From: a virus
UHGV virus genome: UHGV-1373641
Length of the DNA stretch: 64,000 nt
Reading direction: 5' to 3' (one strand)
The translations under genes and the position numbers were made by a program. How positions within the stretch are numbered: the stretch's first letter is position 1; every line of letters starts with the position of its first letter. Of the stretch, positions 171 through 63,054 are shown piece after piece. The notes below the pieces were generated by a model, which was not told where the DNA came from, made no database searches, and was given only the letters and a program-made list of their open reading frames with translations.

Positions 171-503
171 ATGAAATACAGCGATATTGTGGATAGGCCA
201 GCATATAAGGCTCCCGATAAATGCCCTATCTGTGGGGACTGGCCTTTGAATGGTTATACACCAGATATAAAAACAACGGAAGATGGAGAAACGGTATTCG
301 TTTGGAGATGCCGGAGATGCTCCTATAATTACGTGGTTCCGGGAAAAAAGGTTTCCCAAAAGACCGAACATCTAAAATATATTTTTATTAAAATTTTTTG
401 GGAGGATTTAGGCAAAACTTTGATATGCTCCGCATTGGTCTTTATAGGTGTATTTGGGTTAGGTTGTTTGGGACTCCTGCTTTTCGAATCACTCTTTAAG
501 TAA
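171..503 (+). CDS. Small Zn-ribbon protein with a C-terminal transmembrane helix (paralog of 526..846)
   Basis: The SD is aaaagaggaggt followed by ATG. The protein has CPICG...CRRC (a four-Cys ribbon) and a hydrophobic C-terminus, ICSALVFIGVFGLGCLGLLLF. Confidence 0.6.
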   Translation: MKYSDIVDRPAYKAPDKCPICGDWPLNGYTPDIKTTEDGETVFVWRCRRCSYNYVVPGKKVSQKTEHLKYIFIKIFWEDLGKTLICSALVFIGVFGLGCLGLLLFESLFK

Positions 504-525: not shown

Positions 526-846
526 ATGAAAAACGATATTCGTATTTCAGTACCAGCGTATGATTTTGGAAAGGACTGTCCTGTTTGTGGTAGTTCGAAC
601 ACTGTTTTTCAAAAGGATGGAAGAGAACTAAGAGGAGATGGGGAAATGGTTTTTATTTGGAGATGCTCAATGTGCGGGTGTGAATATGAAGTGCCCTCAA
701 AAGATATCTCTCAACGAATGTACGTCATGAAAAGGCGTTTTATTGAAAAGTTTCCCGAATCATTTGCATATGGAGTAGTTGCTTCTCTAGCCGGGTTTGG
801 TGCGGTAAGCTTGTTTATAATCTTTATCGTGTATATTTTTAAATAA
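526..846 (+). CDS. Small Zn-ribbon protein with a C-terminal TM helix (paralog of 171..503)
   Basis: CPVCG...CSMCGC, with the same architecture and the shared motif GE(T/M)VF(V/I)WRC. The C-terminal hydrophobic helix is VVASLAGFGAVSLFIIFIVYIF. Confidence 0.6.
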   Translation: MKNDIRISVPAYDFGKDCPVCGSSNTVFQKDGRELRGDGEMVFIWRCSMCGCEYEVPSKDISQRMYVMKRRFIEKFPESFAYGVVASLAGFGAVSLFIIFIVYIFK

Positions 847-855
847 ATATAATTG

Positions 856-886
856 TTGACATACTAACGAAAATTCGGCATAGTGT
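856..886 (+). promoter_or_regulatory. Sigma70-like promoter, TTGACA-N17/19-(C)ATAGTGT, sharing the TAACGAAAATT spacer element with the promoter at 3935
   Basis: ttgacatactaacgaaaattcggcatagtgtg. A near-identical element recurs at 3935, 6813 and 63124. Confidence 0.5.
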
Positions 887-888
887 GT

Positions 889-933
889 TCACGAAGAGTT
901 TATCTACGAAGAGTTTATCTACGAAGAATTTAT
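889..933 (+). repeat. Three tandem 15-bp repeats (ACGAAGAGTTTATCT) in the 5' leader of the 947 gene
   Basis: cacgaagagtttatct acgaagagtttatct acgaagaatttatc, immediately followed by SD aaggagg. It shares the CACGAA start with the repeat at 1-56. Confidence 0.75.
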
Positions 934-946
934 CAAGGAGGATGAA

Positions 947-2500
947 ATGTCAAATATTTCTCAGAAGAACGTAGAGCGAAGGAAAGAACTTTTTACTCTT
1001 ATTTTAAGTAGAAAGACGGATAAAGAGCTAGCTCATCTTTGTAGAAGATCACCCGGGCCTTGCACGGTATATGCAGTCTGCCCAGATTCAGAAGAAGGCC
1101 CATGCCCGTTCAAGGCTATGTGTGGTGACGTAGATGAAAGCCATTGGAGCGAGGTGAGAGCTATGGTAGAAAAAAAAGGAGGAAATAAATTGGAAAGCGT
1201 AGAACATGAAAACCAGCGGGAAGTTTTGGCACCTTCTCCTCTCATTGACTCCAGTTTTCTTGATGAAGGCATAGATTCTTATAAATCTTTGTTTGAAGAA
1301 AATTTGGTTGAAAGTCTTGCTAGACAATGTAACGACCTTAATGGCTATAATACGTGTCCTCTAGCAAATGATGATGCTCTATGCCCCTTTGGGTCTAGCA
1401 AGCCGTGCCCAGAAATCACTGCTGACGATTGGAGGAAACTTGAATTGTATGTAGAGGAAAAAGAAATTCAGGATATTAATAATCAAAGCGAGGCCCCAGA
1501 CCCTCTTATTCATTCTTGCGTTATTGATGAATACCTACAATCGTATAAACTTTTATTGGAAAATACAACTCCTTTTGGTTTTGCTAGGCAATGCAGTGAT
1601 GTAAGAAGAACTGCTAGATGCCCTCTTGAAAATGAAAAAGCCCCGTGCCCTTTCGGAAGTAATAAGGGGTGTTCAGAAATCATTGAAGAAGATTGGGAGA
1701 AGCTAAAATCCTATGTACTTGAAAAGACGAAATCTAGTGACGTAAACCAAGAAAATATGAATACTGTAGAACATGAACCTCCAAAGATGGTCAACCCCGA
1801 ACTTTCTGACGTTAATTCATACATCGTCTATGAAAACCTAAAATCATTTAACTCTGTACTTATTAATAATGTTTCATATGATAATCTAGCTAAACGCTGT
1901 AATAACTCTTCAAATAAGATCTTAGGATCATGCCCTATTAGTCATACCAATCATTTTTGTCCTTTTATGTCTCCTTGTGAGAAGATATCTTCCGATCATT
2001 GGAGGGAAGTCGGGGAGCTTGTGGCAAATGAATGGGAAAATCTTGCAATGTATGTAAAGGAAAAGGAGGAAGCTAATATGCAGAGAGAAGCTAACATCCA
2101 GAGAGAAGCTCATACACAGGGTCACAATACTCAGGAGGATATTGCGCAGGAAACTAAGGAATCCCCTGTTCGATGCTACTATGCTTTCATGGTGAAAGAA
2201 GAAAAGATTGTTTTTTACAAAGGCGTTTTTACGCGACGCAAGACTGTACCTGTGGCATTCACCGCTGAAAGCCAACGAGATCTTTTTGTTCGTAATTACG
2301 AATGCTCCTACGCAGTGAGCCGTAGACAGCTTTTGCATGAACTTGCGGACGCCTATCAGGATAGAAGTATTACGGAACTGTCTAGGGTAATCTCGGAAAT
2401 TCGGAGACGCGCAATCTCCGCGACAGAGAATAGTAACGGAGCCATTACTTACAGTGACTATCTTTACTTCGATATGGCGGAAATTGTTTTTGATATCTAA
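947..2500 (+). CDS. 517-aa protein with four tandem copies of a four-Cys module (C..CP(L)..CPF(GS)..C.EI..DW..L..YV.EK), plus a distinct C-terminal domain
   Basis: Strong SD. Repeats seen at aa ~31-75, 128-172, 216-260 and 318-372. Each is preceded by a helix of the form ...SYK.L.EN....ARQC. No family name recognised. Confidence 0.55.
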   Translation: MSNISQKNVERRKELFTLILSRKTDKELAHLCRRSPGPCTVYAVCPDSEEGPCPFKAMCGDVDESHWSEVRAMVEKKGGNKLESVEHENQREVLAPSPLIDSSFLDEGIDSYKSLFEENLVESLARQCNDLNGYNTCPLANDDALCPFGSSKPCPEITADDWRKLELYVEEKEIQDINNQSEAPDPLIHSCVIDEYLQSYKLLLENTTPFGFARQCSDVRRTARCPLENEKAPCPFGSNKGCSEIIEEDWEKLKSYVLEKTKSSDVNQENMNTVEHEPPKMVNPELSDVNSYIVYENLKSFNSVLINNVSYDNLAKRCNNSSNKILGSCPISHTNHFCPFMSPCEKISSDHWREVGELVANEWENLAMYVKEKEEANMQREANIQREAHTQGHNTQEDIAQETKESPVRCYYAFMVKEEKIVFYKGVFTRRKTVPVAFTAESQRDLFVRNYECSYAVSRRQLLHELADAYQDRSITELSRVISEIRRRAISATENSNGAITYSDYLYFDMAEIVFDI

Positions 2501-2513
2501 ACTATAAACTCAC

Positions 2514-2556
2514 TATATGCAGCGTGTCTTTATCGATCTCGGACACGCTGCATATA
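2514..2556 (+). promoter_or_regulatory. Perfect 15-bp-stem hairpin (13-nt loop) between the stop of the 947 gene and the RBS of the next gene
   Basis: tatatgcagcgtgtc tttatcgatctcg gacacgctgcatata. No U-tract follows, so a classic intrinsic terminator is not supported. It could be an RNase III or attenuator site. Confidence 0.5.
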
Positions 2557-2571
2557 AAAAGGAGTGAAAAT

Positions 2572-2934
2572 ATGAATCTTTCCGAATGTTTGAAAATGTT
2601 CCCACATGATCGGTATTTTGATGACCTTGAAGTTAATCCTATGCAGCTTGCGGAGCACTATTACTTTAGAAAAAACACTAGACCGGGAAGCATTGATTAT
2701 AGGGATTCCGCGCTTGCTTTGATGTTAGCGGAAGGCACAGATTTTTCTTCGACCGATAACACTACTCATTTGATCCACAGATTTATTGATGTCAAGTGTA
2801 TTCAGTGTAAGGGTAAGATGCACTATAAGACAGCACATGGCTCTGAGCATACGAATGTCATTTTCAAGTGTGATTCCTGTGGAACGGAACTTACTTTGTG
2901 CCTTGCAAATTTCTCCGTAAAATTTAAAAAATAG
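2572..2934 (+). CDS. Hypothetical protein with a C-terminal Zn ribbon (CIQC...CDSCG)
   Basis: SD aaaaggag precedes the ATG at 2572. C-x2-C...C-x2-C at the C-terminus. Confidence 0.55.
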   Translation: MNLSECLKMFPHDRYFDDLEVNPMQLAEHYYFRKNTRPGSIDYRDSALALMLAEGTDFSSTDNTTHLIHRFIDVKCIQCKGKMHYKTAHGSEHTNVIFKCDSCGTELTLCLANFSVKFKK

Positions 2935-3061
2935 AAAAAATGGTTGACTCCTATGAAAAGTTTCGCTACATTCAGTTTTGTTGAAAGGATGATTGTCGCC
3001 GCCATAGTGGTCTTTGTGTTTTCTATTCTTCCCGTATAAAATAAACTAAAAGAGGATAAAA

Positions 3062-3412
3062 ATGAAGATTCGTAATTTCACCGGGCACCAGATTAATGTT
3101 TACAATCCTTCTGGGACTACAGAATTGTTTCGTTTTGAACCGGAAGGCATGGCTCGGGTTAACTATGTCCGAGAATATGATACTGTTTTGTCTGCTCATG
3201 ACCCTAAAGGGTTTGTTCCTGTAAATGAAATTGTGGAAAGGGAAATTAAAGGCTTGCCAGCTCCTGCCAAGGATGTTATGTACATCGTAACGAACATGGT
3301 TTTTGACTCGTCTGACAGGATTGATTTGCTTTGCCCAGACGAACTTGTACGGGACGAAAATCACCGTGTTAAAGGATGCTCCAGTTTGCGTCGACGTACC
3401 ATTTTTAACTAA
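3062..3412 (+). CDS. Hypothetical protein
   Basis: SD aaaagaggat. The ORF is in an operon with its neighbours. Confidence 0.5.
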   Translation: MKIRNFTGHQINVYNPSGTTELFRFEPEGMARVNYVREYDTVLSAHDPKGFVPVNEIVEREIKGLPAPAKDVMYIVTNMVFDSSDRIDLLCPDELVRDENHRVKGCSSLRRRTIFN

Positions 3413-3426
3413 AGAGGTTAATTGTC

Positions 3427-3927
3427 ATGCAGACATTTCTTCCCGTTCCAGACTTCCTTGAAACGGCTAAGATTCTCGACAATAAGAGGTTAAATAAGCA
3501 AATCGTGGAAGCCTATCAGATTTTTTCTGGTCGTGTACCTACAAAGAACCATCCGGCTTGCCTTATGTGGGAGGGATATGAATATGATTTGAGTAGATAT
3601 ATTGCGACTTTATGCTCCGAATACTATATGCGGTTTGGAAAGTCACATGTAATTCGTGAGAGGTTGAGTGGTGTCAGATTATACAGTTTTGAATCCACCG
3701 AAAAACCTTTCTGGCTTGGGGATGGTCTTTTCCACTTCTCGCAAAGGGTCAATCTCTTGCGTAAGGACTTTGACTACTATCATACGAAAAAGTTTTTTGG
3801 TGGCATTAGCAAGGACTCGTTAGATCGCTATCCGAAGGGCTATTATTGGCCTGTAGCGAAGCCCAATGGAACCGCGCATAAAGATAGGATGAATTGGATT
3901 GAATGGATTTCTGAAAAGAGTTTTTAA
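3427..3927 (+). CDS. Hypothetical protein with possible weak resemblance to the MRLWSLHP..YLD / NHP 'pyrimidine dimer DNA glycosylase-like' phage family
   Basis: The N-terminus MQTFLPVPDFLE...NHP loosely parallels the family start MRLWSLHPQYLD...NHP. This is from memory and needs a profile search. Confidence 0.25.
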   Translation: MQTFLPVPDFLETAKILDNKRLNKQIVEAYQIFSGRVPTKNHPACLMWEGYEYDLSRYIATLCSEYYMRFGKSHVIRERLSGVRLYSFESTEKPFWLGDGLFHFSQRVNLLRKDFDYYHTKKFFGGISKDSLDRYPKGYYWPVAKPNGTAHKDRMNWIEWISEKSF

Positions 3928-3934
3928 AAAAGTG

Positions 3935-3963
3935 TTGACAAGGTAACGAAAATTTCATAGTAT
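3935..3963 (+). promoter_or_regulatory. Sigma70-like promoter TTGACA-N17-TAGTAT
   Basis: ttgacaaggtaacgaaaatttcatagtat. It shares TAACGAAAATT..CATAGT with the promoter at 856. Confidence 0.55.
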
Positions 3964-4045
3964 GCCTTTCAAGAGAAAGGGAGCACGGAAATATTCTATC
4001 AAACCATTTTAATCTAAACATTTTAATCAACAAGGAGAGATCAAC

Positions 4046-4216
4046 ATGGCTATTATGATTCCTACCAGCTTTTTCTATGGCAAGAAGAATCCCGAAAAGG
4101 CGTTGCGTTGTGCAGAATGTGGAAAGCCCCGCGTAAGAGGGACTCAGCTTTGCGACAAGTGCAAGGCGGAATTTCGTAAGCCCGTAAAGGCCCCGAATTA
4201 CGCGAAGCCCGAATAA
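4046..4216 (+). CDS. 56-aa Zn-ribbon mini-protein (not in the ORF track)
   Basis: SD caaggagag plus ATG. MAIMIPTSFFYGKKNPEKALRCAECGKPRVRGTQLCDKCKAEF... Confidence 0.45.
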   Translation: MAIMIPTSFFYGKKNPEKALRCAECGKPRVRGTQLCDKCKAEFRKPVKAPNYAKPE

Positions 4217-4283
4217 TTGGATTTTGTAAAGTAGTGGGGGCTTAATGCCCCCACATGCTAACAAAAAAATAAAAGAGGATAAA

Positions 4284-4922
4284 ATGGAAGAAGAAAACGT
4301 AAAACGTGAAGCTTCTTATGGGACCATCCGTTTATCGAGGGCGCAAATCGGTGGAGGCGGTCAGTTCTTCTTTGGCTCTAAAGTAAGAGTAACTAATTCG
4401 ATTCTTATTGAAATCAATAATGCCGAAATTGTTACAGACCACGGGGAACAACGAGTCAGGGATGCTGGAGGTGCCCCGCTTATCAGGGTCGAGCTTACTC
4501 CACTCCAATTCTCTGAGCTTCTTATGTCCGCCGATAGATATGAAGGTGTCCCATGCACCATCACTCGGCATCCTATCCACGGCTCCGTAAAATATGTCCG
4601 GGAAGGAATTAAGACGGATGCCGACCTTGCGGAGGAAGCCTTTAAAAATTCCGTTAGGAAGCTCAAGAATACTTTGACTAAGGACGCTGTGAATATAGTC
4701 AATGATTCTAAGTTGTGTAAACGTGATAAAGAACGTGTTTTGAGTGCTCTTGGTACTGTTGAGCGCAACCTTACAGCTAACAGTGAATATAACCTTAAAT
4801 GCCTTCGCGAAGCCACGGAACGTACTTTGATGGAAGCTAAAGCTGAAATGGAAGGGTATATTCAAAATCGGTGCAAGCAGCTTGGCCTTGAAAATCCGTA
4901 TGAAAAGGAAGCGATTGAATGA
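4284..4922 (+). CDS. Hypothetical protein
   Basis: SD aaaagaggataaa precedes the ATG at 4284. The ORFs on the opposite strand are treated as shadows. Confidence 0.5.
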   Translation: MEEENVKREASYGTIRLSRAQIGGGGQFFFGSKVRVTNSILIEINNAEIVTDHGEQRVRDAGGAPLIRVELTPLQFSELLMSADRYEGVPCTITRHPIHGSVKYVREGIKTDADLAEEAFKNSVRKLKNTLTKDAVNIVNDSKLCKRDKERVLSALGTVERNLTANSEYNLKCLREATERTLMEAKAEMEGYIQNRCKQLGLENPYEKEAIE

Positions 4923-5152
4923 CGGAAAATAATAATGATGATAAAGATGAGCTTGAAGCTCTCGCAAAGCTATTAGCTATCTCTTGTCAGAAACATCGTA
5001 TTCGTGAAATTAAAAAATCCTGTCCTTTTCGTGGATATAGCTGTCCTCTAAATAGTTTTACTTTTGAATATGGATGTGAGGACATTAAAGTCAATGACTG
5101 GCTACGGTTTTTTGAAAAATTAAAAGACCTTGCAAAGGAGGCGATTGAATGA
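4919..5152 (+). CDS. Single-module member of the four-Cys 'CPF...C.(E/D)I..DW' family
   Basis: SCQKH...SCPFRGYSCPLNSFTFEYGCEDIKVNDWLRFFEKL matches the repeat unit of the 947..2500 protein. SD aaggaag. ATGA overlap with the upstream gene. Confidence 0.55.
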   Translation: MTENNNDDKDELEALAKLLAISCQKHRIREIKKSCPFRGYSCPLNSFTFEYGCEDIKVNDWLRFFEKLKDLAKEAIE

Positions 5153-5352
5153 AAGCTAATAAAAAAGACGTAGGGGAGATAATTACTATTAGCGATATTG
5201 CTTACATGCACACTCAGGCTTGTAAAGATCTTGGTAGGGACTGTTTGTGGAGCCACTGTCCATTATTTCATAGAGGATCGTGCGATGAAATTGAACAATC
5301 AGATTGGATTGAAGCTTTGGAAAAATTGGTTAAAGGGGAGCTTGTAATATGA
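5149..5352 (+). CDS. Single-module member of the same four-Cys 'C.EI..DW' family
   Basis: ACKDLGRDCLWSHCPLFHRGSCDEIEQSDWIEALEKLV. SD aaaggagg. Overlapping start and stop. Confidence 0.55.
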   Translation: MKANKKDVGEIITISDIAYMHTQACKDLGRDCLWSHCPLFHRGSCDEIEQSDWIEALEKLVKGELVI

Positions 5353-5537
5353 GCATCAATAAGAAAACCGTGGACCTCGCAATTTTCGAGTGTGAAAGAT
5401 TCCTTGAGCGAGCTAAGCTTGTGGCTTCTCTTGGTTATATTCATGCTGACGTAAGATACACCGCAGCATTGAAGCGGTCTTGCGCGGAAGTAAGAAACGC
5501 GGTGGTAGCTGTAAGAAAGGATGCTCGAATATGCTAG
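5349..5537 (+). CDS. Hypothetical 62-aa protein
   Basis: SD aaagggga. Translationally coupled within the operon. Confidence 0.4.
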   Translation: MSINKKTVDLAIFECERFLERAKLVASLGYIHADVRYTAALKRSCAEVRNAVVAVRKDARIC

Positions 5538-5842
5538 GCAACGGCAGAAACTTTGGGATGAACAACATAAAGGCGGCTCAGATGAATAACGAAAAAACGG
5601 AAAAGACAGAAAACGCATCTTCAATTCTACAAAAGACGGAAGATGATATCCTCATGTTTTTGGTTTATGCTATAATCAATCTTGTTTACGTTGTTGGTTT
5701 GTTTGGGTTTCTTCTGCCGTTTTTGATTAGCTCCGAATCTACGGCTTTAGTCCTGACCGGAGCGGCATTGATTTTTAGTTTCCCCGTAACTGTGTTTTTG
5801 AGCTATAAAACCTTTAAAAGTATTTTTAAGGAAGACGTATAA
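5531..5842 (+). CDS. Small two-TM membrane protein immediately upstream of the SPFH gene, in the position of an NfeD-like partner
   Basis: The ATG at 5531 has SD aaagg. Hydrophobic segments are FLVYAIINLVYVVGLFGFLLPFLI and LVLTGAALIFSFPVTVFL. Its stop overlaps the SPFH start (ATAATGA). Confidence 0.45.
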   Translation: MLGNGRNFGMNNIKAAQMNNEKTEKTENASSILQKTEDDILMFLVYAIINLVYVVGLFGFLLPFLISSESTALVLTGAALIFSFPVTVFLSYKTFKSIFKEDV

Positions 5843-6726
5843 TGAAAAAGATTATCGCATGTGTTACTCTTGTTTTTGTCCTTATTTTCGGCATTTATGC
5901 TCTTACTTGCATTGAGAAGGTCGAGGCTGGTTACGTTGGCGTGAAGGTGAACTTGCTTGGCTCGTCGAAAGGCGTGGACACTGAAAAGCTTGGTGTAGGC
6001 CGCTATTGGGTAGGCATCAATGAACAGCTTTTCACGTTCTCTACGGCGCAGCAGACAAAGGAATGGCGGGGAACCGGAAATAGCGGCGCATTCCAATTCC
6101 AATCCAAGGAAGGGCTTTCTCTCAGTGCTGACGTTTCTCTGTCTTACTCCGTTGATCCCGATAAAGTGTCTTTGCTTTTCCAAACGTATAGAAAGGGTAT
6201 TGACGAAATCACGAACGTATATGTTTACAACATGATTCGAGACGAGATTGTCCGCGCCGCTTCTACGAGGACTTCTGAGCAGCTTTACGGGGAAAAGAAG
6301 ACCGAGTTTATTATGCAGGTGACGGAGGCCGTCCGTGAACGTCTCGCGCCTCTTGGGATTAAGATTGATTACATTGCCATTGTCGGCAATATCTGGCTTC
6401 CCCAGAATGTAAAGGAAGCGATTGACGCTAAGGTGGGCGCTATTCAGATTGCTACGCAGCGCCGCACAGAAATTGAAACCGCGCAAGCTGAGGCGGATAA
6501 GAAGAAAGCCGAGGCGGAAGGACGCGCCGAATCCATGCGGAAGATTGCGGATGCCGAGGCATATTCCATTACGAAGAAAGCGGAAGCTCAGTATACAGCA
6601 AATAAGAAGCTCGCTGAATCCCTCACTCCTGAGCTTATCCGATACATCATGGCTACCGGATGGAATGGAGTTCTGCCCAAGGTTACAGGAGAGAATATCC
6701 CAATGCTGAGTATCCCCCTCGAATAA
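5842..6726 (+). CDS. SPFH/band-7 (prohibitin/HflC/YqiK-like) membrane protein
   Basis: N-terminal TM, then GYVGVKVN and ...ADVSLSYSVDPDKV...NVYVYNMIRDEIVRAASTRTSEQLYG. The Ala/Glu/Lys-rich C-terminal coiled coil is typical of SPFH. Confidence 0.75.
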   Translation: MKKIIACVTLVFVLIFGIYALTCIEKVEAGYVGVKVNLLGSSKGVDTEKLGVGRYWVGINEQLFTFSTAQQTKEWRGTGNSGAFQFQSKEGLSLSADVSLSYSVDPDKVSLLFQTYRKGIDEITNVYVYNMIRDEIVRAASTRTSEQLYGEKKTEFIMQVTEAVRERLAPLGIKIDYIAIVGNIWLPQNVKEAIDAKVGAIQIATQRRTEIETAQAEADKKKAEAEGRAESMRKIADAEAYSITKKAEAQYTANKKLAESLTPELIRYIMATGWNGVLPKVTGENIPMLSIPLE

Positions 6727-7342: not shown

Positions 7343-7358
7343 AAAAAAGGATAAAGTA

Positions 7359-7781: not shown

Positions 7782-7798
7782 AAATGAGGATTGACATC

Positions 7799-46127: not shown

Positions 46128-46571
46128 CTACAACTTTACGATTCTTTGGTTATTCGATGCCAACTTTATTCCGAATAAAGGTTCTATATAAGATGGTTTT
46201 GTTTTATCATACATTCCGAGCTTGGCATATTTTAACAGGTGGTGAAGCGGCTTAGGAATTTTTTCATATCTTGTCCATAACCAAATCTCCTGAAAATACG
46301 CATTCAATCGAATGATAAAGTTTTGAAGAGAAATCAAATTCTGATCAAGAGGTTCTCCTCCCAAAATCCAAACTTTTTTTACTAATAGTTCACTGTCTTT
46401 AAAAAGTCCAGAATTTTCTTGAGTTTTAAGCCATTCCTGATACGGAATCCCCTGATTGAATTCCCAAAGTTCTTTGTTATGACATCCCTCACAATGAGGT
46501 GCCTTACATCCGGAAAGATATATTTCCAGTGCCCGATGAGCCAGATTAAATTCTGTGCCCGCTACTCGCAT
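46128..46571 (-). CDS. nrdG: Anaerobic ribonucleotide reductase activating protein
   Basis: SGCKAPHCEGCHNKELW parallels the E. coli NrdG SGCVHECPGCYNKSTW radical-SAM cluster motif. Adjacent to nrdD. Confidence 0.65.
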   Translation of the reverse strand: MRVAGTEFNLAHRALEIYLSGCKAPHCEGCHNKELWEFNQGIPYQEWLKTQENSGLFKDSELLVKKVWILGGEPLDQNLISLQNFIIRLNAYFQEIWLWTRYEKIPKPLHHLLKYAKLGMYDKTKPSYIEPLFGIKLASNNQRIVKL

Positions 46572-49507
46572 CTCATTTCTTCCTTACCATAGAACTGGCG
46601 ATTGGGACGGTCTTTTTCACGGCGAACCTTATTCCAATTTTTTACATTAGTAAAGAATCCGACAACACGGGTAATCTCCTCAGACCATTCTTTGCCACAG
46701 GTAGGGCATCTGTCGGAACCCACCCAAGTATGGTTATCATCGCAGATCCGAAGAAGATAGTTTACTGCCCAATAAACAACGCCAGACTTTGCGGCATAGA
46801 TGATAAGGTCTTCGATGTTCTTCGTGTCCTCAATTCTCTCACCAACATTGACATGGCAAATCGCTCCACCCGAAAACAATCCATCGAATTTTCCTTGGAG
46901 TCTAATACGGTCGAGCATATTGGCTTTAGCGATAAGCGGAATAAACTGATTCGAATAGAAGGATACTCCACAATCGTAACCAAGGACTTTATCTTTCTTC
47001 GCGAGTTTCACAGAGGATGACTCGGCAGGAACCTGTTCACAATTATGAGGAGCTTGATACAATTCTTGAGCTTCATCAATCCAAAGGTTAATCTGTTCAA
47101 GAGTCCGCATCACAAGATCTTGCCCATCCTCATCCAAAATGTCCTTTCCGAGGATGCTCACTGCTTCATAGAGTCCGGTGACTCCAAAAGTCGAATATTG
47201 TTTAGTAATATCCATGTATCCATGCGTGTACAAAGGCGCTGCGCCAAGGTCAATTCGACGCTGTACAATCTTGCGTTTAGCGTTATTGATTTTCGCTGCG
47301 GTAAAAAACGCATCCCTAAGCTTATCAATAAACACGCCCTCATCTCCCCCCGACTGCATTGCAAGGCGAGGGAAGTTTGCCGTCACAACACCAAGAGATC
47401 CAATTTTTGTGCTTCCGGAGCCGAAAGAATTAAAATACTCATTTTTCCTGTCCGAGCGCAAACGACAGTTATGGGTGATTACGCCATTGGGCAAAGTGAA
47501 GTAAGGTTCTTCCGGATTCTGCATTTCAAAACAATATACGTATTCTTCGTCGTAAGGAACTTCTTCGACACTTTCTACCTTAAAATACACAGAGTTGTTT
47601 CTTACCTTGTATACGCCCGGATGCTCACGACGATTCTTCAAATCATACCAACGGATACAATATAGGGGGTAATTCCGAGAATAGTTCTTTCCGCGAATCT
47701 CCACCAACTCATCAGTGCGATCCGACAGGTCGATGTTGCTAACCATACCCAGAGAAGTAAGGATGGCTTCTCCAGTTTCGATAAGCTCTTTAGACGTAGA
47801 ATAAATACGATTGCTATTTCCTCCGTCAGTTGCATACCATCCGGCGATGATGCCCTTGCGGAACTCTGTGGATTGAAGAAGAATGTTCATATCAAACGAC
47901 TTCTCTTCCGCATAAGAACCTTTAACATACTTCCCAATAATATCATATATCGCCTTAGAATAAATTTTGGCAAACACAACTTTGTTCCGGGACGGATTAA
48001 TATGGAAGTCCTCTTCAATACCCCAATCTTTTGCGGCTTGAATAAGCGTGTCGATACAACCGCGCTTCGCTTCACTCAAAGAAAAAGTCACATCGTAACT
48101 TTCGACGCCCTCTCTTGCATATCGGCTTCCATCGCCAGCATAGGCCCCAATGAGATACCCCTGAGCATAGGTAAGGTGCTCATCTTTTTCATTATAAGAG
48201 TTAAGCTCCCTCATACTGAATCCGATATAATCATCAGTAGTCAAATCAACAGTAGTTTTATCCCCAGAGAGAGTATAGTTGATATGATTATCCGTTACAA
48301 CAAATTCCTTCTTATTAGAAAGAACGACCTTATACATCTTATGGCCCAAAACAGGAAGCATCACGGGCTTTGCCTTGACCCAAGACCCATTGTGGAATAC
48401 AGCGAAGTTCTTCCTATAAAGATCATAGTTGGATGATTTTACGATATCACGAATATCCGCAAGAACCACGCCATTACTGGATTTCGTAAGGACTTTCTGC
48501 CCTCCAGAAAAACAGCATGAACTCAAAGTTGACATTTTGCCATTATACATATTGATAAATCCGAACTCTTTGTTCTTCTCAGCAATGAACTTTACAAAGT
48601 CCTTATCTACGATATTTCGGTCGTCATCAATAGAAAAACAAGCTGTCGTTACGGGAAACGTAAGAGGCGTTCTCCGCATCTCTTCATTCATGGCGTCGAG
48701 GAAAAGCCCCTGCAACTCATGAACAGTTTCAGGATTAGCGGCTTTTCCGTCCATCATGTAATCAGGACAGAGGGATTCAAGGAAATTACGGTCGAATACA
48801 GAAAGATTGGAAAATGGGCTTTGATTTCCCCGGAATTCCCAATTCACCGTATAAATAAAATTGATAAGTTTTTCCTTTACATATGTTTTATAATCATCAA
48901 CTTTAATCCGACCATCGTATCCGATCTTTTTCATTTTTTCTACGAAAAGAGATGCCACAATAAGAAAATCTGCAAATCCGGTAGCTCCCAAGGTTGAGTT
49001 TGCAGCAACAACCATAAACTGTTCTACTTGACGCACAAACGTCTCCAAAGATTTAGGAGCGCTCACACGAACTCGCTTAGATACGCCTTCCAAACCATTA
49101 AGAGCGATATCATAAGTAGAATAATTAAAACAATAGGGAAGGGCTACATCAGTGGAGTCGTTAACATAAAGATCACCACGAAGCACTTTTTCCACGACAG
49201 TATTAGCTTCAAGGAGCCCATAATCCTTTTTAATCTGTTTCCAGAGGAGGAAATAACTATTGTACTTTTTAATGGGCTTCGGCATTTCATGATTATACTC
49301 AATAGATGTCCGCGCACATACATTGGCATTAGAGTCTACGGAAACATCTGCCGTTGTAGTATCCGTATTAAAAAAATCTTTAGAAAACTTATTGATATCC
49401 ATCTGATCGCCAATTCCATCCAAGGTCAAAAAGTCCCTGCCATATTTAGCGATAAGATACATCATAAGGTCATAGAACTCTTGATCCCAAGTAATCTTAA
49501 TATGCAT
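46562..49507 (-). CDS. nrdD: Anaerobic ribonucleoside-triphosphate reductase (class III) interrupted by an intein
   Basis: C-terminal Zn ribbon CDDNH...CPTCG plus glycyl-radical-like RVVGFF. Extein about 632 aa. Confidence 0.75.
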   Translation of the reverse strand: MHIKITWDQEFYDLMMYLIAKYGRDFLTLDGIGDQMDINKFSKDFFNTDTTTADVSVDSNANVCARTSIEYNHEMPKPIKKYNSYFLLWKQIKKDYGLLEANTVVEKVLRGDLYVNDSTDVALPYCFNYSTYDIALNGLEGVSKRVRVSAPKSLETFVRQVEQFMVVAANSTLGATGFADFLIVASLFVEKMKKIGYDGRIKVDDYKTYVKEKLINFIYTVNWEFRGNQSPFSNLSVFDRNFLESLCPDYMMDGKAANPETVHELQGLFLDAMNEEMRRTPLTFPVTTACFSIDDDRNIVDKDFVKFIAEKNKEFGFINMYNGKMSTLSSCCFSGGQKVLTKSSNGVVLADIRDIVKSSNYDLYRKNFAVFHNGSWVKAKPVMLPVLGHKMYKVVLSNKKEFVVTDNHINYTLSGDKTTVDLTTDDYIGFSMRELNSYNEKDEHLTYAQGYLIGAYAGDGSRYAREGVESYDVTFSLSEAKRGCIDTLIQAAKDWGIEEDFHINPSRNKVVFAKIYSKAIYDIIGKYVKGSYAEEKSFDMNILLQSTEFRKGIIAGWYATDGGNSNRIYSTSKELIETGEAILTSLGMVSNIDLSDRTDELVEIRGKNYSRNYPLYCIRWYDLKNRREHPGVYKVRNNSVYFKVESVEEVPYDEEYVYCFEMQNPEEPYFTLPNGVITHNCRLRSDRKNEYFNSFGSGSTKIGSLGVVTANFPRLAMQSGGDEGVFIDKLRDAFFTAAKINNAKRKIVQRRIDLGAAPLYTHGYMDITKQYSTFGVTGLYEAVSILGKDILDEDGQDLVMRTLEQINLWIDEAQELYQAPHNCEQVPAESSSVKLAKKDKVLGYDCGVSFYSNQFIPLIAKANMLDRIRLQGKFDGLFSGGAICHVNVGERIEDTKNIEDLIIYAAKSGVVYWAVNYLLRICDDNHTWVGSDRCPTCGKEWSEEITRVVGFFTNVKNWNKVRREKDRPNRQFYGKEEMRCE
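47468..48514 (-). mobile_element. 349-aa intein with a LAGLIDADG homing endonuclease, in NrdD
   Basis: CFSGGQKVL... (Cys1), LAGLIDADG motifs YLIGAYAGDGS and IIAGWYATDGG, C-terminal ...GVITHN then the +1 Cys (CRLRS). Confidence 0.8.
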
Positions 49508-53268: not shown

Positions 53269-56199
53269 TTATTTTCTATAAAATTCTCCCCTCCATCCTT
53301 CGGCCTTTACTGGCAGACCTTCCGCCCATTGAGGAAGCTTGCACATGATATTTTCAAATTCCTCGACAGACCCAAACCCTTTAGGAACCTCAGCAATGAT
53401 TTCATCGTGAACATGAAACACTACCGGATAGTTGGCTTCTTCGAGATTGAACATCGCATTCACCATCAGATCTCTACAGAAAGCTTGTGTAACATTTTCT
53501 GAAAGTATGAGATGGTTAAGCGGCCTTCTCACAAATTGTTTTTCTGGCGTCAAGGTCATCGCCGTAACAAGCTTCTTGAACGCTGGCTTTTCTGGAGTAG
53601 ACCATGCCATCTCCACATCTTCAAGTTTAGGCTCGAAGTAGAAGAGGAACCTGCCACTAGGGAGCTTCATAAGGAGGAATCTCTTATAGTATTGGAATGA
53701 TACTCCACGATAAGAATAAATTCCGCCCTTATTCGTCATAGCCATGACAGCAGCTTCAACGAGTTTGTGCCAAAGCTTAACCGTCATTGGGTGCCCGTCT
53801 CTCCATGCAGCAATAATCTTCTTTCCTTCCTCTTCATCAATGCCCATTCTATCAGCTCCAAAGCGAAGGAACGCGCCATAACCACCTCCGTATCCACAGT
53901 TATGCACAATGCGTGGACCGCAGGATGTATGTATCATAAACCTGCTTTTATCTCCACAATTCAAAAGATCATAAACTTTTTCTATTTTAGTATAACCATC
54001 TCTATTAGATAAAATGCTCCCAGTAAGAATAATTTCATCGCTATCATCTTTTTTGATAAACTTTAAAATCGCCATATTTATTTTATTATAGTCCTTAATA
54101 ACGGCTTCACTCACTTTAATATTCAGATAATTTTGAGCTGTTGAATACTTAGAAAAAATCGTAGCTAAAAAGACGATAATGGAGCATACATATTTAACTT
54201 TATCTTCAAGACTCGTGTTCCTTAAGCTTTCACCCAAGTATACATAAACACCTTTTCTACTTTTAGAATCAACAAAGGATACATTAAAGTCATCTTCGTC
54301 AAAATCGGAAAGAATTACTTCAATTCCCATTTCAGCTATAGTTACTTTTACTGGGTATTTCTTCAAACTATAAATAATTTTATCTTGAACTTTTGAGATT
54401 TGATAACTAACCCAACTAGAGAATATTTGATATTGCTCGCTAGAATAAACTTTCCCATCTCCTAGCCATTTACACAATTCAATAGCTGCATCGGAGTCTA
54501 TCCAAATATTTTCATCCATCAACCATTTTTGATCAGGCGTAGATTCTACTCCCAAAAAATTAACGATTTCTTTAATACCTTGGCAATATGCTCCATCTGT
54601 CAAACACCAGTTTTCTCCATCCCATACATAATCATCTTTAGTTATGTCGACGATTTTTTTTATTCCATAGCTCGTATAAACCATTGTATCCGCAGAGAAG
54701 CAAGCCAACGTAGCCGTCTTACCTACTTGACGCTGCTTCTTATCCACATCTTCATATTTCACCCCATAGATAGTCGTAGCTGCAACTTTATACGGGTCGA
54801 GGCCATCCCTAAAACCTTGAAGAACATACTCTTCGCCAGCGAGATATGCCAATGCTCGGGCTTCAATCCCACTATAGTCGGCACAGATAAAATCGTATCC
54901 TTTTCTAGCGTGAATCATTGCGCGAAGGCAATCGGAGGCAAGGACTTTAGGGTCTTTCCAATACTGCTGGATAAGATCTAAATCCCCGCTAGCTGCAAGT
55001 TCGATATCCATTTCACTGATATCATAATTATCCAAAGGCTTGGAACCTTCGGGTATATTCATATTATTTGTTGAAGGTCTAGTCAAATTTTGCGGTTGAA
55101 TAAGAGCACCAGCAAATCTTCCCGTAGAGGCTCCATGATATATCATCGTTCCATGCGCCCTGCCATCATAGCACGAAGTACAAAGCATGGTCTGATATTT
55201 TGCCGTAGAAGACATGGCAATAGTCTGACGAATCTCAAGGAATCTACGAACATCGGAGGGGAGATCAGTCCGTTCAAGAAGGTCGGAGATAGCTTGCTTG
55301 CTTGCCGAATCAGTATCAACCCCACGAGATTGAAGCCATTCAATAATAGACTTGGAAGACTTCATGGTAGATACAGCACCATACGTAATCTCGGAAGCTT
55401 CCTCCGTCAAAATATCTTCTACTTTATTAACCATATCCATAATTTTGACCGCGTGAAACCTGTCAATTCCTACTCCACGGTCATTGATCGTCTGGTCGAG
55501 CCGCCACACTTTAAGCTCCCGCTCAGGGATAGGAGGAAGCTCCATAAAAAGAACTTCTTCCGCAACCACGTCCTGTCGACAATATTCAACATATCGTTTA
55601 AACATTGGCTCGTCACAAGGATAGACAATATATTGATGGTAGTTTTTAATGGTAGGAATGCCACCTTTTGAAAGCACGGCATAGACGTACTCTTGAGTAG
55701 CCTTAGCCTTTTCGGGGTCTGGAAATGCGGAAAGTTCGGCTTTACGGAATTTCCTAGGCTTTGACATTTTCATCATCAGCTTATGCCCTTCATTATCCTT
55801 CTGAGGAGCGTCTTTTCGCCAAACCTTTACCGCTTGTTCCAGTTTACGGGGAAGGTTGCACATAAGGGCCTGAGACATCGTGCATCGAATTTTCTCTAAT
55901 GGCAATGGCTTAAACCAGAGAGGCTCCATCTTGAACTTCCAAATGGCTCTTTCGAAAGGGGCGTTATGTGCTGCAATCTCTTCACAATTATTAATAATAT
56001 CCTGCAATTCATCGTCGCTCAATTCAGTATCAAGAAAATGCCTATATGCCGGAGCTACCCATACACGAGCCTCCTGTCCACATATACGGACGGCAAGCAT
56101 CATCACCTCAGTATCAGGGTGCGCAGCATATGCGTAAGCTCCACAGGTTTTAATATCTACAGGGGACCTCGTTTCAAAGTCAATTACGGATTTCATCAT
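53269..56199 (-). CDS. Family A DNA polymerase (3'-5' exonuclease plus polymerase) interrupted by an intein in motif B
   Basis: DFETRS (Exo I), DYSGIEARALAYL (motif A), RQVGKTATLA|intein|CGYGGGYGAF (motif B), HVHDEI (motif C). Strong SD. Confidence 0.8.
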   Translation of the reverse strand: MMKSVIDFETRSPVDIKTCGAYAYAAHPDTEVMMLAVRICGQEARVWVAPAYRHFLDTELSDDELQDIINNCEEIAAHNAPFERAIWKFKMEPLWFKPLPLEKIRCTMSQALMCNLPRKLEQAVKVWRKDAPQKDNEGHKLMMKMSKPRKFRKAELSAFPDPEKAKATQEYVYAVLSKGGIPTIKNYHQYIVYPCDEPMFKRYVEYCRQDVVAEEVLFMELPPIPERELKVWRLDQTINDRGVGIDRFHAVKIMDMVNKVEDILTEEASEITYGAVSTMKSSKSIIEWLQSRGVDTDSASKQAISDLLERTDLPSDVRRFLEIRQTIAMSSTAKYQTMLCTSCYDGRAHGTMIYHGASTGRFAGALIQPQNLTRPSTNNMNIPEGSKPLDNYDISEMDIELAASGDLDLIQQYWKDPKVLASDCLRAMIHARKGYDFICADYSGIEARALAYLAGEEYVLQGFRDGLDPYKVAATTIYGVKYEDVDKKQRQVGKTATLACFSADTMVYTSYGIKKIVDITKDDYVWDGENWCLTDGAYCQGIKEIVNFLGVESTPDQKWLMDENIWIDSDAAIELCKWLGDGKVYSSEQYQIFSSWVSYQISKVQDKIIYSLKKYPVKVTIAEMGIEVILSDFDEDDFNVSFVDSKSRKGVYVYLGESLRNTSLEDKVKYVCSIIVFLATIFSKYSTAQNYLNIKVSEAVIKDYNKINMAILKFIKKDDSDEIILTGSILSNRDGYTKIEKVYDLLNCGDKSRFMIHTSCGPRIVHNCGYGGGYGAFLRFGADRMGIDEEEGKKIIAAWRDGHPMTVKLWHKLVEAAVMAMTNKGGIYSYRGVSFQYYKRFLLMKLPSGRFLFYFEPKLEDVEMAWSTPEKPAFKKLVTAMTLTPEKQFVRRPLNHLILSENVTQAFCRDLMVNAMFNLEEANYPVVFHVHDEIIAEVPKGFGSVEEFENIMCKLPQWAEGLPVKAEGWRGEFYRK
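53899..54702 (-). mobile_element. 268-aa intein in DNA polymerase motif B, with a possible degenerate LAGLIDADG
   Basis: CFSADTMVYT (Cys1, block A), internal LCKWLGDGKV, C-terminal PRIVHN then the +1 Cys. Confidence 0.7.
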
Positions 56200-56259: not shown

Positions 56260-56451
56260 TTATTTCGTTTCCATGTTTATATGATTTAGATAAAGCGGCT
56301 GTATACTTTCGCCTTTTACCCTACGTTTCGCTGGATATGCCAATTGGCAGACTAGATATTTTTCATCCCACATCATACACCTCTTTTCCTTACACGGCGC
56401 ATTCAAGAAAGGACAAATTTTTTCTACTACCCTGAAAGTTCCTTTTGCCAT
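56260..56451 (-). CDS. Small Cys-containing hypothetical protein
   Basis: ORF. Confidence 0.3.
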   Translation of the reverse strand: MAKGTFRVVEKICPFLNAPCKEKRCMMWDEKYLVCQLAYPAKRRVKGESIQPLYLNHINMETK

Positions 56452-56465
56452 TATATCCTCCGTGC

Positions 56466-57515
56466 TTACAGAATTTCAATGCTTCCGGAACAAAAGTCCC
56501 CACGGCCCCAATGAATAAGCGGAGTAGGAGGCAGCGGGTCGCCTACCGCATTAAGCTCAATATATTCCTCCATCAAAGAATCAATAAGAGCAAAAGCTTC
56601 GTCGATATGAATCTTTGCATGTTCAAATTCTTCAAACACGTCGCTCGGCTTTTCTTCCATCTTAGGAATAGGGAGCCCGGAAATATTGAGGCTTTCATTA
56701 TTCAAAGTAAACTCAATATTGATGCCGGAGCCAGCGCAGCAAGTAACCGCTGCCTTTTCCGCACGAAGACCACGCAGAAGGGCCATACGAGCCTCGTGAA
56801 GCTGGTCCGACTTCTCCGTGACCTTCTCCCCGGTTTCCGCCGAACTTACCGTTACAGTGCCGCTCATGGAGCATTCGTAGGAAGTATTCTCGGTGGTGAC
56901 AGGTTTGGTGGGATCATTCTCCATGCGCCACCAGAACCACGTCAGGAACGTCTGGCTATCGACTGTGAAATCAAGGTTTCGAGATTCCACAATTTCTTCG
57001 AGATTCTTAACATTTGGAATCCCGGCGACCAACTTGAACGACGCCCGGAACTTCTCAAAGACACTATTGGAAGTAGCGAAAAGATACCCTTCCCCTGTTT
57101 CGGGATTAAACATGACCGGATAGAAAGAGGGCTTGGCTTTTTCTTCATTGAGCAGTTTGTTCTTCACAGTGACCTGAATGTCCTTACGTTCTTCACGATT
57201 GGGTTTCTTTCCATGAGTTTCGGAGAAACGTTCAATCCGGTCAGAAATTTCACGCTTGAGAAGATTGGGATCTACCCGCTTAGTGTCGGTACGGAAAAAG
57301 AATGCAATAAACCCATTCGCCTTGATGTTGCCTTCGTGGAAATCAGAGGAGCCCCAACGGTCATTAAGGGGGCAGAAGCCTTGCATGGAATCCATTCCCG
57401 CTTCCCACTTTTCCTGAAAACGTGCGGCGTTAAGCCCATTGATGATAGTTTCCAGATTGTCTTCAACTTCGGTGATAAAACGGATAACGGAAACCTTGGA
57501 CTTGAGAATAGACAT
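56466..57515 (-). CDS. RdgC-like recombination-associated protein (tentative)
   Basis: Its size and the composition of the N-terminal region. SD aaggagag. Needs an HMM check. Confidence 0.4.
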   Translation of the reverse strand: MSILKSKVSVIRFITEVEDNLETIINGLNAARFQEKWEAGMDSMQGFCPLNDRWGSSDFHEGNIKANGFIAFFFRTDTKRVDPNLLKREISDRIERFSETHGKKPNREERKDIQVTVKNKLLNEEKAKPSFYPVMFNPETGEGYLFATSNSVFEKFRASFKLVAGIPNVKNLEEIVESRNLDFTVDSQTFLTWFWWRMENDPTKPVTTENTSYECSMSGTVTVSSAETGEKVTEKSDQLHEARMALLRGLRAEKAAVTCCAGSGINIEFTLNNESLNISGLPIPKMEEKPSDVFEEFEHAKIHIDEAFALIDSLMEEYIELNAVGDPLPPTPLIHWGRGDFCSGSIEIL

Positions 57516-61455: not shown

Positions 61456-63054
61456 TTAATTTAAAATTTTATCTGCAATTTCCTGTTTATGAATAAGCAT
61501 GGAACAAAGTTCTTTATCAAGGGATTTTTCTAAGACTAAATGCTGAACAAGCACATAATCCGCTGTAGCCCCGATTCGTACACAACGATCCTCAGCTTGA
61601 CTCATAAGACCGGGCACAAATGCCAATTCTACAAATATCACTATTGAGCTTTTTGTCAAGGTGTATCCGACACCAGCAGCTTGGATATTTCCGATAAAAA
61701 GATGCACATTATCATTTTCTTGAAATGAATCAACACTTTCCTGCTTTTGTTTGTCCGACATTCCTCCTACAACTTTTACGGGATTGTACTCTTTAAGCTC
61801 GTCAGTTAGTAAATCAACAACAGCCCTATGATGCGCGAAAACGACGACTTTGTCAACCCCCTCAAGCAAATCTTTTAAATATTCTACACAAAATGGGATT
61901 TTGCTCAATGCAACTTCCTTGCGCTTTGCCGCCATCTCGGTAAACGCGACTCCCTCACCAAACTCCATCTGGCGCACGCATTCTTCGTATCCATAAAGAT
62001 CACATAATTTAGCCCATCGTTTGGCTTCTTCTTTGATAGCTGCCTTACAATCTTTCGTTTCCAAAGGTATTTCGATAAGTTGTCTTCTTTTCTTGGGAAG
62101 CTGCGGAAGCACATCTGATTTCAATCTTCGAATCATCATCGACCCACGGAGCTTCTCAGATAAGGATGGAAGATTGCTAGCTCCACTCATATTGAGTACG
62201 GATTTTTTTACCGCATGTCCTTTTTGCTTATCATATATGTATATATCTTCATAATGTGCGGAACAATACTCGAATGCAAACGCGAATTTATTAGGCCATC
62301 TTTTTTCGTCAAGACAGTTCAGGAGCGGGAATAATTCTATGGGCCTATTCACCAAAGGAGTTCCGGTCATCAAGACTTTCCGAAATGCTTTTTTTGCGAG
62401 ATGAAGCGATTGAATAGTCTTTTTCGCTTCGTCATTCTTACAATTGTGAGCTTCGTCAATAGCCACGACATCGTATTTTCTCTTGTCGAGGAAAGGGAAT
62501 ACGTTCGGCCTCCATACACTCGAAAAGCTTACGATATGCGCGAAAGCCTCATCGTCTTTAGGGTCCAAAGTTACTTTACGGGATTTATCGACAAGCCATT
62601 TATCCAATTCCCTTTTCCAATTCAGCCGGAGAGATGATGGACATATAATTAAAGCTCTCTTTATTTCCGGAAGGCTGTTCAGATATCCGGCAATCTGAAT
62701 GGTTTTCCCCGTTCCCGGTTCATCAGCAAGTAAGACTCCGGGGTTCCTCATCATATATTCTATACCTGCCAACTGATAATCTAAATACTGCAAGCCTTCA
62801 TTAGATGGTACGGAAAATCCTTTCGACGGAGCTGTGGCCCAAGAAAAATCCCATTTTTCTGAAAAACTCTCAAGAATGCTTCTAGTCCTGTAATCGTGAG
62901 AACTTTCTATAAATTCCTTCGCAATCCTGAATAGCTTTGTCTCGAACCAATCTTCTTCCTTATTATATGTTACGTGTTTCATTTTACTAAGGGCACCCCG
63001 TTCTTCCTGTGTATGTGCCCGTATTTGAAAAAGTTTTCCGTTATACCTCAACCT
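61456..63054 (-). CDS. SNF2-family (SF2) helicase
   Basis: LADEPGTGKTIQ (motif I), VAIDEAHNCKN (DEAH), a C-terminal helicase-C region. The start MRLRYNG follows SD ggaggg. Confidence 0.75.
   Translation of the reverse strand, partial: RLRYNGKLFQIRAHTQEERGALSKMKHVTYNKEEDWFETKLFRIAKEFIESSHDYRTRSILESFSEKWDFSWATAPSKGFSVPSNEGLQYLDYQLAGIEYMMRNPGVLLADEPGTGKTIQIAGYLNSLPEIKRALIICPSSLRLNWKRELDKWLVDKSRKVTLDPKDDEAFAHIVSFSSVWRPNVFPFLDKRKYDVVAIDEAHNCKNDEAKKTIQSLHLAKKAFRKVLMTGTPLVNRPIELFPLLNCLDEKRWPNKFAFAFEYCSAHYEDIYIYDKQKGHAVKKSVLNMSGASNLPSLSEKLRGSMMIRRLKSDVLPQLPKKRRQLIEIPLETKDCKAAIKEEAKRWAKLCDLYGYEECVRQMEFGEGVAFTEMAAKRKEVALSKIPFCVEYLKDLLEGVDKVVVFAHHRAVVDLLTDELKEYNPVKVVGGMSDKQKQESVDSFQENDNVHLFIGNIQAAGVGYTLTKSSIVIFVELAFVPGLMSQAEDRCVRIGATADYVLVQHLVLEKSLDKELCSMLIHKQEIADKILN

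Follow-up and report, generated by a model that had tools for sequence, protein, structure and literature searches.

A previously unclassified four-cysteine module of phage proteins, present as mini-proteins and as tandem arrays in an uncultured gut phage lineage

Introduction

Small proteins with four cysteines (Cys4 proteins) are common in the accessory regions of phage genomes, and nearly all of them are zinc ribbons of the knuckle type. Phages also encode copies of the WhiB-like (Wbl) [4Fe–4S] proteins of actinobacteria and actinophages, which act through protein–protein contact. In this study, we describe a family of Cys4 modules of about 55–65 residues that is distinct from both. The module is contained in six copies in a stretch of 64,000 nucleotides of the virus genome UHGV-1373641 (the whole of this stretch is referred to here as the window), where it is distributed over three plus-strand genes: four tandem copies (R1–R4) are found in a 517-aa protein (947..2500), to which we refer as the array protein, and one copy each in the mini-proteins M1 (4919..5152; 77 aa) and M2 (5149..5352; 67 aa). 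The module family is real, widespread and previously unclassified, and it is found almost only in phages.

Among the described systems, the Wbl proteins may provide the best analogy for how the module works, although the module is not a member of that family. Both are small (60–100 aa) and mostly helical, the module by prediction, both have four invariant cysteines as the sole strictly conserved ligand-type residues, and both have phage-encoded copies. However, the cysteine spacing of the module, C-x4-11-C-x6-8-C-x5-7-C, differs from the C-xn-C-x2-C-x5-C of the Wbl proteins, the module lacks their G[V/I]WGG turn, no Wbl chain in the PDB was matched, and the host in the present case is Shine–Dalgarno (SD)-using and probably a member of the Bacillota rather than of the Actinomycetota. 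The knuckle-type fingers (zinc ribbons, treble clefs and Lar-like proteins) are likewise small Cys4 proteins of early or accessory phage blocks, and proteins of this type adjoin the module genes in the window (171..503, 526..846, the C-terminus of 2524..2934, and 4046..4216); however, their cysteines are arranged as paired CxxC motifs on β-hairpins, whereas the module has no CxxC pair in any of the 155 modules examined, no predicted strand and no Pfam match. In architecture only, the array protein resembles the KRAB-C2H2 zinc-finger arrays, in which a variable number of swapped metal-stabilized modules diverges faster than the adjoining conserved domain; the fold is unrelated, the module is acidic instead of basic, the setting is prokaryotic and viral, and nothing indicates DNA binding. 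Finally, the Ocr/ArdA-type DNA mimics, AsiA, the anti-CRISPR proteins and other anti-defence proteins are also small and acidic, are encoded in early-type accessory blocks and occur as cassettes with presence/absence polymorphism, but they lack the Cys4 signature and gave no sequence or fold match to the module.

Results

The core motif of the module is located at aa 32–67, 128–162, 216–250 and 318–352 of the array protein, at aa 23–61 of M1 and at aa 25–53 of M2, and the window copies follow the consensus LAxxC-x4-11-C(P)-x6-8-CP(F)-x5-7-C-x7-W. An initial annotation of the window had proposed four tandem repeats of about 90 aa in the array protein, and this was borne out, since the motif occurs four times with periods of 96, 88 and 102 aa. 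A hidden Markov model (HMM) built from the family alignment A2 described below, from which R1–R4 had been left out, matched all four repeats: R1 (974..1186; aa 10–80; Cys 32, 45, 53 and 59, with HW at the Trp position) with an independent E-value (i-E) of 2.4e-10, R2 (1262..1471; aa 106–175; Cys 128, 137, 146 and 154; W162) with 2.5e-14, R3 (1526..1735; aa 194–263; Cys 216, 225, 234 and 242; W250) with 1.4e-13 and R4 (1832..2080; aa 296–378; Cys 318, 329, 338 and 344; W352) with 1.5e-9, all on the plus strand. R1 contains a fifth cysteine (C39) in its first loop, and the last helix of R4 bears an 11-residue insertion. That M1 and M2 are single copies of the same module, as had also been suggested, was confirmed with an HMM made from R1–R4 only, the top non-self matches of which were M1 (E=4.7e-5) and M2 (E=3.6e-3); the match of M1 to the A2 HMM (E=2.2e-12) is that of a sequence which is itself among the 98 rows of the alignment.

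The regular expression C-x3-14-C-x3-10-CP-x3-12-C-x7-W matched only the array protein, M1 and M2 among the 997 six-frame open reading frames (ORFs) of the window, as compared with a mean of 0.025 matches when residues were shuffled, and a chance origin of the motif is therefore excluded. R2 is 21%, 49% and 28% identical to R1, R3 and R4, respectively, and this range of 21–49% amino acid identity holds for the repeats overall. Neither Tandem Repeats Finder (TRF) nor a repeat search revealed a DNA-level tandem repeat of the module period in the array gene. Judged from both of these findings, the repeats are ancient. Additional matches in the window (+46389..46589, +55874..56134, −56475..56263 and +62649..62801) were at noise level (E>0.01), and all but the one at −56475..56263 fall within larger genes of the opposite strand. 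In the ORF at 56263–56475 (minus strand, 71 codons), which separates the DNA polymerase gene from the following gene, the stretch 'ICPFLNAPCKEKRCMMW' resembles the motif in part; with an E-value of about 0.1, at the level of noise, this ORF is probably unrelated to the module.

To define the family, a profile of 16 diverse modules (alignment A1) was searched exhaustively against 1.84 billion representative proteins, which yielded 129 clusters at E<=1e-3. The matches beyond the array proteins of this phage are mostly single-module proteins of 55–80 aa (median 72 aa), and 16 of 126 matches contain two modules. Alignment A2 comprises 98 mini-proteins, namely 96 distant members together with M1 and M2, and follows the pattern LAxxC, then C(P), CP(F) and C-xx-[VI]T-xx-(D)W. 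Its invariant columns are the four cysteines, and at least 90% of the rows also share the Trp and the Pro after Cys3. Among the modules, a Pro is found directly after Cys2 in about 70% and directly after Cys3 in nearly every one. Across 155 modules the spacings are C1-x4-11-C2, C2-x6-8-C3, C3-x5-7-C4 and C4-x7-W. The cysteine pattern, for which conserved spacing in aligned homologues had been singled out beforehand as decisive, is strictly kept. R1–R4, M1 and M2 all carry this signature, with four cysteines at the family spacings, the Pro after Cys3 and the Trp. Other features had been drawn too widely in the initial annotation: the SYK, EI and YV-EK elements are confined to the modules of the array protein rather than being family-wide, and the 'invariant DW' reads HW in R1 and R4, the Trp alone being invariant. 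No stretch of 7–10 conserved columns is present in either A1 or A2, and no basic position is conserved in the family alignment. The family is acidic, with a median pI of 4.8, a median net charge of −5 and a pI>8 in only 9% of members; the array protein has a net charge of −26 and R2 alone one of −10. Signal peptides or membrane segments were not found in the family sequences read.

The distribution of the family was assessed by means of a degenerate DNA pattern representing CPF…C..[VI]T..DW[ED], for which about 4 chance hits are expected in 596 Gb. In 185,579 species-representative genomes of bacteria and archaea (596 Gb) this pattern occurred at three sites, one of which is a true member, whereas all nine sites in IMG/VR are true members; on these grounds we call the family phage-restricted. 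The lone true site among the species representatives consists of three adjacent mini-genes on a small-gene-rich contig of a Paludibacteraceae metagenome-assembled genome. Other carriers are phage contigs of 64–68 kb, in which the members are located in dense small-gene blocks upstream of PolA with two to three copies per locus, and in two loci (L009 and L012) three copies are adjacent. What had been taken for modular amplification in one phage is thus a widespread phage family with recurrent paralogue clusters and fusions, which takes the form of single mini-proteins, clusters of adjacent mini-genes, two-module proteins and, in the lineage studied here, arrays of two to four modules. With regard to cultured phages, the window gave no nucleotide match and its TerL is less than 40% identical to that of any INPHARED phage; a tblastn search of cultured phages with the family consensus returned nothing, although the low-complexity filter may have masked matches.

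A model of R2 obtained with AlphaFold2 (AF2) from alignment A1 has a predicted local distance difference test score (pLDDT) of 82 and a predicted TM-score (pTM) of 0.71. It places helices at residues 4–13, 16–25 and 54–69 and an irregular cysteine-bearing loop of about 25 residues, and no strand is predicted. In this layout, two N-terminal helices end in LAxxC, the loop holds the next three cysteines, and the C-terminal helix starts at xxVTxx(D)W; the confidence in the cysteine loop is moderate (pLDDT about 70–80). The initial annotation had considered the module undescribed and outside any named family, and this status is supported by searches of HMM libraries, the PDB, predicted folds and the literature. 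When the 98 members were compared with Pfam-A, NCBIfam and PHROGs using hmmscan, no consistent match was obtained and no family, including the zinc-finger families of Pfam, matched more than one of the 98; a comparison of the window proteins with Pfam, PHROGs and PADLOC gave no named family for the module. The libraries cover, among others, small Cys-rich domains, the Lar family and defence proteins. Searches of PDB sequences with profiles A1 and A2 at E<=10 returned only noise, with no Wbl, ferredoxin, MutY/EndoIII or other Fe–S chain among the matches, fold searches gave no match, and full-text literature searches found no published description of such a motif.

Membership of several known classes was considered and rejected. 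The module is not a zinc ribbon or treble clef, because it is without CxxC knuckles, and membership of these classes or of the zinc knuckles is further contradicted by the helices-only AF2 model and the lack of Pfam support. It is also not a Wbl protein, in view of the differences in spacing and turn described above and of an hhalign probability of 0.65% against WhiB1. The spacings of 4Fe–4S ferredoxins (CxxCxxCxxxCP) and of the MutY/EndoIII loop (C-x6-C-x2-C-x5-C) are both absent. With a segment of the Escherichia coli MutY cluster loop, hhalign gave a probability of 0.9%, in which CPx3-4C-x7-W was aligned, and this likeness is a weak lead towards cluster binding. A 55-aa member of the family (P0197) has been named 'adenine-specific DNA glycosylase' by the Joint Genome Institute (JGI); since no MutY/EndoIII chain in the PDB matched and the hhalign probability to the MutY loop is so low, this name is unsupported and is probably a spurious transfer from a cluster-binding loop. 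A 647-aa protein clustered with it (P0208) contains no module and is a clustering artefact. Among the small Cys4 metal modules known from accessory proteins of phages, this one appears to constitute a new family, possibly with a new fold.

In the array protein, modules of the types B-A-A-C are followed by a linker of hexapeptide repeats and by a conserved C-terminal domain. Among 50 homologues, 38 have two modules, five have three and seven have four, and clustering of the modules distinguishes the architectures BA, BAA, BAAC (that of the window), BAAD, BAAE, BAD, AGH and BIJ; the position of R4 is taken in relatives by other module types, namely D, E, G and H. The linker, which joins the last module to the C-terminal domain, is encoded by a tandem repeat at 2069..2114 (+) with an 18-nt in-frame unit in 2.6 copies (TRF), which specifies EANMQR/EANIQR, and the number of hexapeptides differs among homologues. 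The C-terminal domain (2150..2497, +; aa 402–517, 116 aa; alignment A3) is 84–99% identical across all array homologues, and its relatives are confined to this phage lineage; no PDB profile match or Pfam match was found for it, and its AF2 model is poor (pLDDT 52), the alignment being shallow at this level of identity. The pairwise ratio of nonsynonymous to synonymous substitution (dN/dS, NG86) is 0.41 for module B and 0.36 for module A, which is 2–2.5-fold above the 0.16 of the C-terminal domain, and the module-bearing ORFs are conserved with synonymous change. The gene is a mosaic: between one relative (L019) and the window, dS is 0 in the C-terminal domain and 0.45 in the second module. A stand-alone module gene encoding 75 aa (P0052) is located immediately upstream of the array gene in L020 (2059-2286) and L021 (414-641), and the first module of a further protein, P0012, matches P0052 from Met1 with 37% identity (E=2e-16); modules thus switch between the free and the fused form. 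Even nearly identical phages differ by the gain, loss, exchange and fusion of modules.

M1 and M2 are part of a chain of genes linked by ATGA start/stop overlaps, in which a gene for a 225-aa protein (4245..4922, +; phrog_6452) is translationally coupled to M1 and M2. M1 overlaps the gene upstream of it in this way, and M2 overlaps its neighbours on both sides, the last being the next gene. No annotated homologue of the 225-aa protein was found. Among the related loci, L011 is the only one besides the window to carry M1, whereas orthologues of M2 (P0204–P0207; 73–88% identical) are found in most. A junction of 38 nt (…KEAIE-stop/ATG with the ribosome-binding site (RBS) and ATGA overlap) is present at 4901..4938 (+) and again, with 79% identity, at 5131-5168, while relatives without M1 have a single junction and M2 directly after a 212–225-aa gene; because the junction is duplicated at both of its borders, M1 looks like a cassette that recombination has introduced at gene junctions. 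The window, L001-3, L007, L011, L014 and L016 carry both the 225-aa gene and M2, and L020 and L021 carry neither; in these two, the 56-aa gene is followed directly by a homologue of the window's 62-aa gene (5349..5537). This pattern suggests that the 225-aa gene and M2, with M1 where present, form a two- or three-gene accessory cassette.

The window belongs to an uncultured tailed gut phage, as indicated by its terminase, portal, major head, major tail and tape measure proteins, a family-A DNA polymerase and a helicase. The structural and replication genes and that of an anaerobic (class III) ribonucleotide reductase (RNR; 46562-49507) are all on the minus strand, and the module genes lie in a plus-strand block of small genes which extends from position 1 to about 11,000 and is about 21 kb long in related contigs of 80–90 kb. 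No tRNA genes were found in the window. An SD core is present upstream of 66% of 80 non-overlapping ORFs of the whole window as compared with 12% at random positions, and this excess together with the class III RNR suggests an anaerobic host that relies on SD sequences, probably one of the Bacillota. An assignment to the 'Flandersviridae', to which a 20-kb block of unknown ORFs is reminiscent (PMC8008677), is unsupported, and the use of SD sequences argues against a Bacteroides host.

Two candidate promoters precede the module genes. The first (856..884, +; sigma-70-like, TTGACA-17-CATAGT) lies in the gap upstream of the array gene and is conserved in eight related loci, and its function as a promoter is inferred from this position and conservation; the second (3935-3963; sigma-70-like with a perfect TTGACA) is intergenic and precedes the operon with M1 and M2. 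Between the first candidate and the RBS of the array gene (AAGGAGG, 935-941), TRF detected three copies of a 15-nt tandem repeat (891..935, +) with the unit ACGAAGARTTTATCW, which is absent from the rest of the window. There are two copies in most relatives, three in the window and L014, and at least eight in L001 and L002, and this leader repeat could be an operator or an expression-tuning leader.

Recognizable domains in the small-gene block are limited to a pyrimidine-dimer-glycosylase-like N-terminal domain (3427-3927; PF03013, E=3e-13) and to three for which precomputed Pfam matches exist on the L001 orthologues, namely a Band_7/SPFH protein (5842-6726), a short Peptidase_M78 (ImmA/IrrE-like) fragment (6863-7075) and a cREC_REC receiver-like domain (7332-7781). 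Putative metal-binding mini-proteins are unusually frequent in the block and belong to several unrelated kinds. The adjacent genes 171-503 and 526-846 are paralogues (E about 5e-14 mutually) which are kept in all related loci and encode proteins with a zinc ribbon (CxxC…CxxC) at the N-terminus and a hydrophobic segment at the C-terminus, with a weak match to Lar-like restriction-alleviation proteins (E=0.0016); they are unrelated to the Cys4 module. The 136-aa protein of 2524-2934 has a C-terminal zinc ribbon, the 56-aa protein of 4046-4216 is a zinc ribbon, and 7784-8176 encodes a Cys-rich protein of 130 aa without a match.

Discussion

We lean, with some reserve, towards the interpretation that the module is a metal-stabilized protein-binding scaffold, copies of which serve as exchangeable heads for early host takeover or anti-defence. 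Since no signal peptides or membrane segments are present in the sequences read, the proteins are presumably cytoplasmic and reduced. Four invariant cysteines in proteins of this kind almost always form a metal site, and we infer that those of the module bind metal. According to this interpretation, the four cysteines would coordinate a single metal centre, Zn(Cys)4 or an Fe–S cluster, which together with a small core of L, A, F, V and W residues would make up a rigid scaffold, and variable loops and helix faces would bind proteins. The latter would carry the specificity, because the remaining conserved residues (L, A, P, F, V/I and W) look like a mini-core. The module genes are probably expressed early, as judged from the position of the small-gene block opposite the structural and replication strand and from the sigma-70-like promoter candidates, and their products would then probably bind host defence or takeover proteins and neutralize or redirect them. 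In the array protein, the modules would be exchangeable recognition heads that recruit several targets, or several versions of a single target, to the domain at the conserved C-terminus, and M2, with or without M1, may act jointly with the co-inherited 225-aa protein. The acidity of the modules argues against nucleic-acid binding, and the early-type position, presence/absence polymorphism, paralogue clusters and module swapping argue for protein-binding roles in takeover or counter-defence, so that such a role is plausible.

Several of our findings weigh against this interpretation. The dN/dS values of the modules (0.36–0.41) indicate relaxed purifying selection, not demonstrated positive selection. 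The assignment of the genes as 'early' rests on gene order and on consensus promoter matches, and promoter-like sites are no more numerous in the region than expected by chance. In addition, no neighbouring gene family common to different phages was found, so that an argument from guilt by association does not extend beyond this lineage, and the only informative domain fusion found, that of DUF6378 to one member, has a domain of unknown function as the partner.

The strongest of the competing explanations, though in our view an unlikely one, is that the module is an Fe–S regulator working in the manner of WhiB, which carries a [4Fe–4S] or [2Fe–2S] cluster, docks on a component of host transcription such as sigma region 4 or RNA polymerase and reprogrammes transcription, possibly in a redox- or O2-sensitive manner. 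Long and variable cysteine spacings without CxxC are commoner in cluster-binding loops than in Zn(Cys)4 fingers, and both the spacing of the four invariant cysteines of the module and its lack of a knuckle are of this kind. The Pro residues after Cys2 and, in nearly all modules, after Cys3, the small helical fold of the AF2 model, the early-type position of the genes and a strictly anaerobic host, as judged from the class III RNR, would also suit such a regulator, and one member bears the JGI glycosylase name, although this is probably spurious given the very low hhalign probability to the MutY loop. The near-zero probability of the alignment with WhiB1 and the failure of any Fe–S protein in the PDB to match at E<=10 speak against it. 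Apart from the question of regulation, an Fe–S cluster as the metal centre is a serious possibility, given that the module has no knuckle, that its spacings are long and variable, that it contains Cys-Pro motifs and that the setting is anaerobic; as the phage carries an anaerobic RNR, an O2-labile cluster would be viable.

It is less probable still that M2, and M1 where present, are subunits, chaperones or antidotes of the phrog_6452 protein rather than free-standing host inhibitors. Such a partnership would account for the ATGA overlaps, which couple the 225-aa gene, M1, M2 and the next gene, and for the joint presence and joint loss of the 225-aa gene and M2 in the related loci. However, the joint absence is seen in just two loci, all of the loci are close relatives, members of the family in other phages have no phrog_6452 neighbour, and the array protein and the P0052-type gene are located elsewhere.

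A nucleic-acid-binding zinc-finger array, with modules that recognize DNA or RNA in the manner of a tandem zinc-finger protein and a C-terminal domain acting as effector, is very improbable: while a variable number of tandem metal modules beside a conserved domain would fit, the acidity of the family, only 9% of which has a pI>8, and the net charge of R2 do not, the alignment has no conserved basic positions, and no nucleic-acid-binding finger family was matched. Least credible of all is a metal-free structural or disulfide-stabilized mini-domain, or else a chance, low-complexity or non-coding artefact, for which the moderate AF2 confidence in the cysteine loop could be invoked. Against it, the motif is far beyond chance and kept in 129 clusters, the ORFs are conserved with synonymous change, and the proteins, without signal peptides or membrane segments, are presumably in the reduced cytoplasm.

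Returning to the protein-binding scaffold, a bolder version of it can be put forward as possible, if doubtful: the module may represent a new fold for a metal cluster, possibly an Fe–S cluster that would suit strictly anaerobic hosts, and would serve phages as a general-purpose, evolvable binder scaffold. Single modules, gene clusters and fused arrays would then make up a combinatorial repertoire of inhibitors directed against host immunity or takeover targets, with recombination between co-circulating phages as the means of module exchange, and in this lineage the modules would be coupled to a conserved effector domain. The evolutionary habit of the family is unusual in any case, with its paralogue clusters, its fusion and fission, and its variable-copy arrays on an ultra-conserved domain, and with 60–70 residues the module offers a compact, testable starting point for the study of 'dark' early genes in abundant gut phages that infect anaerobes. 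If Fe–S clusters are present, the family would join WhiB as a second case of phage-borne mini-regulators that bear clusters, here in phages of a different host phylum. If the modules are target-specific binders, the family would constitute a naturally occurring library of inhibitors against host defence or physiology, and if both the fold and the repertoire are as we propose, it would be a phage counterpart of the fast-evolving zinc-finger arrays.

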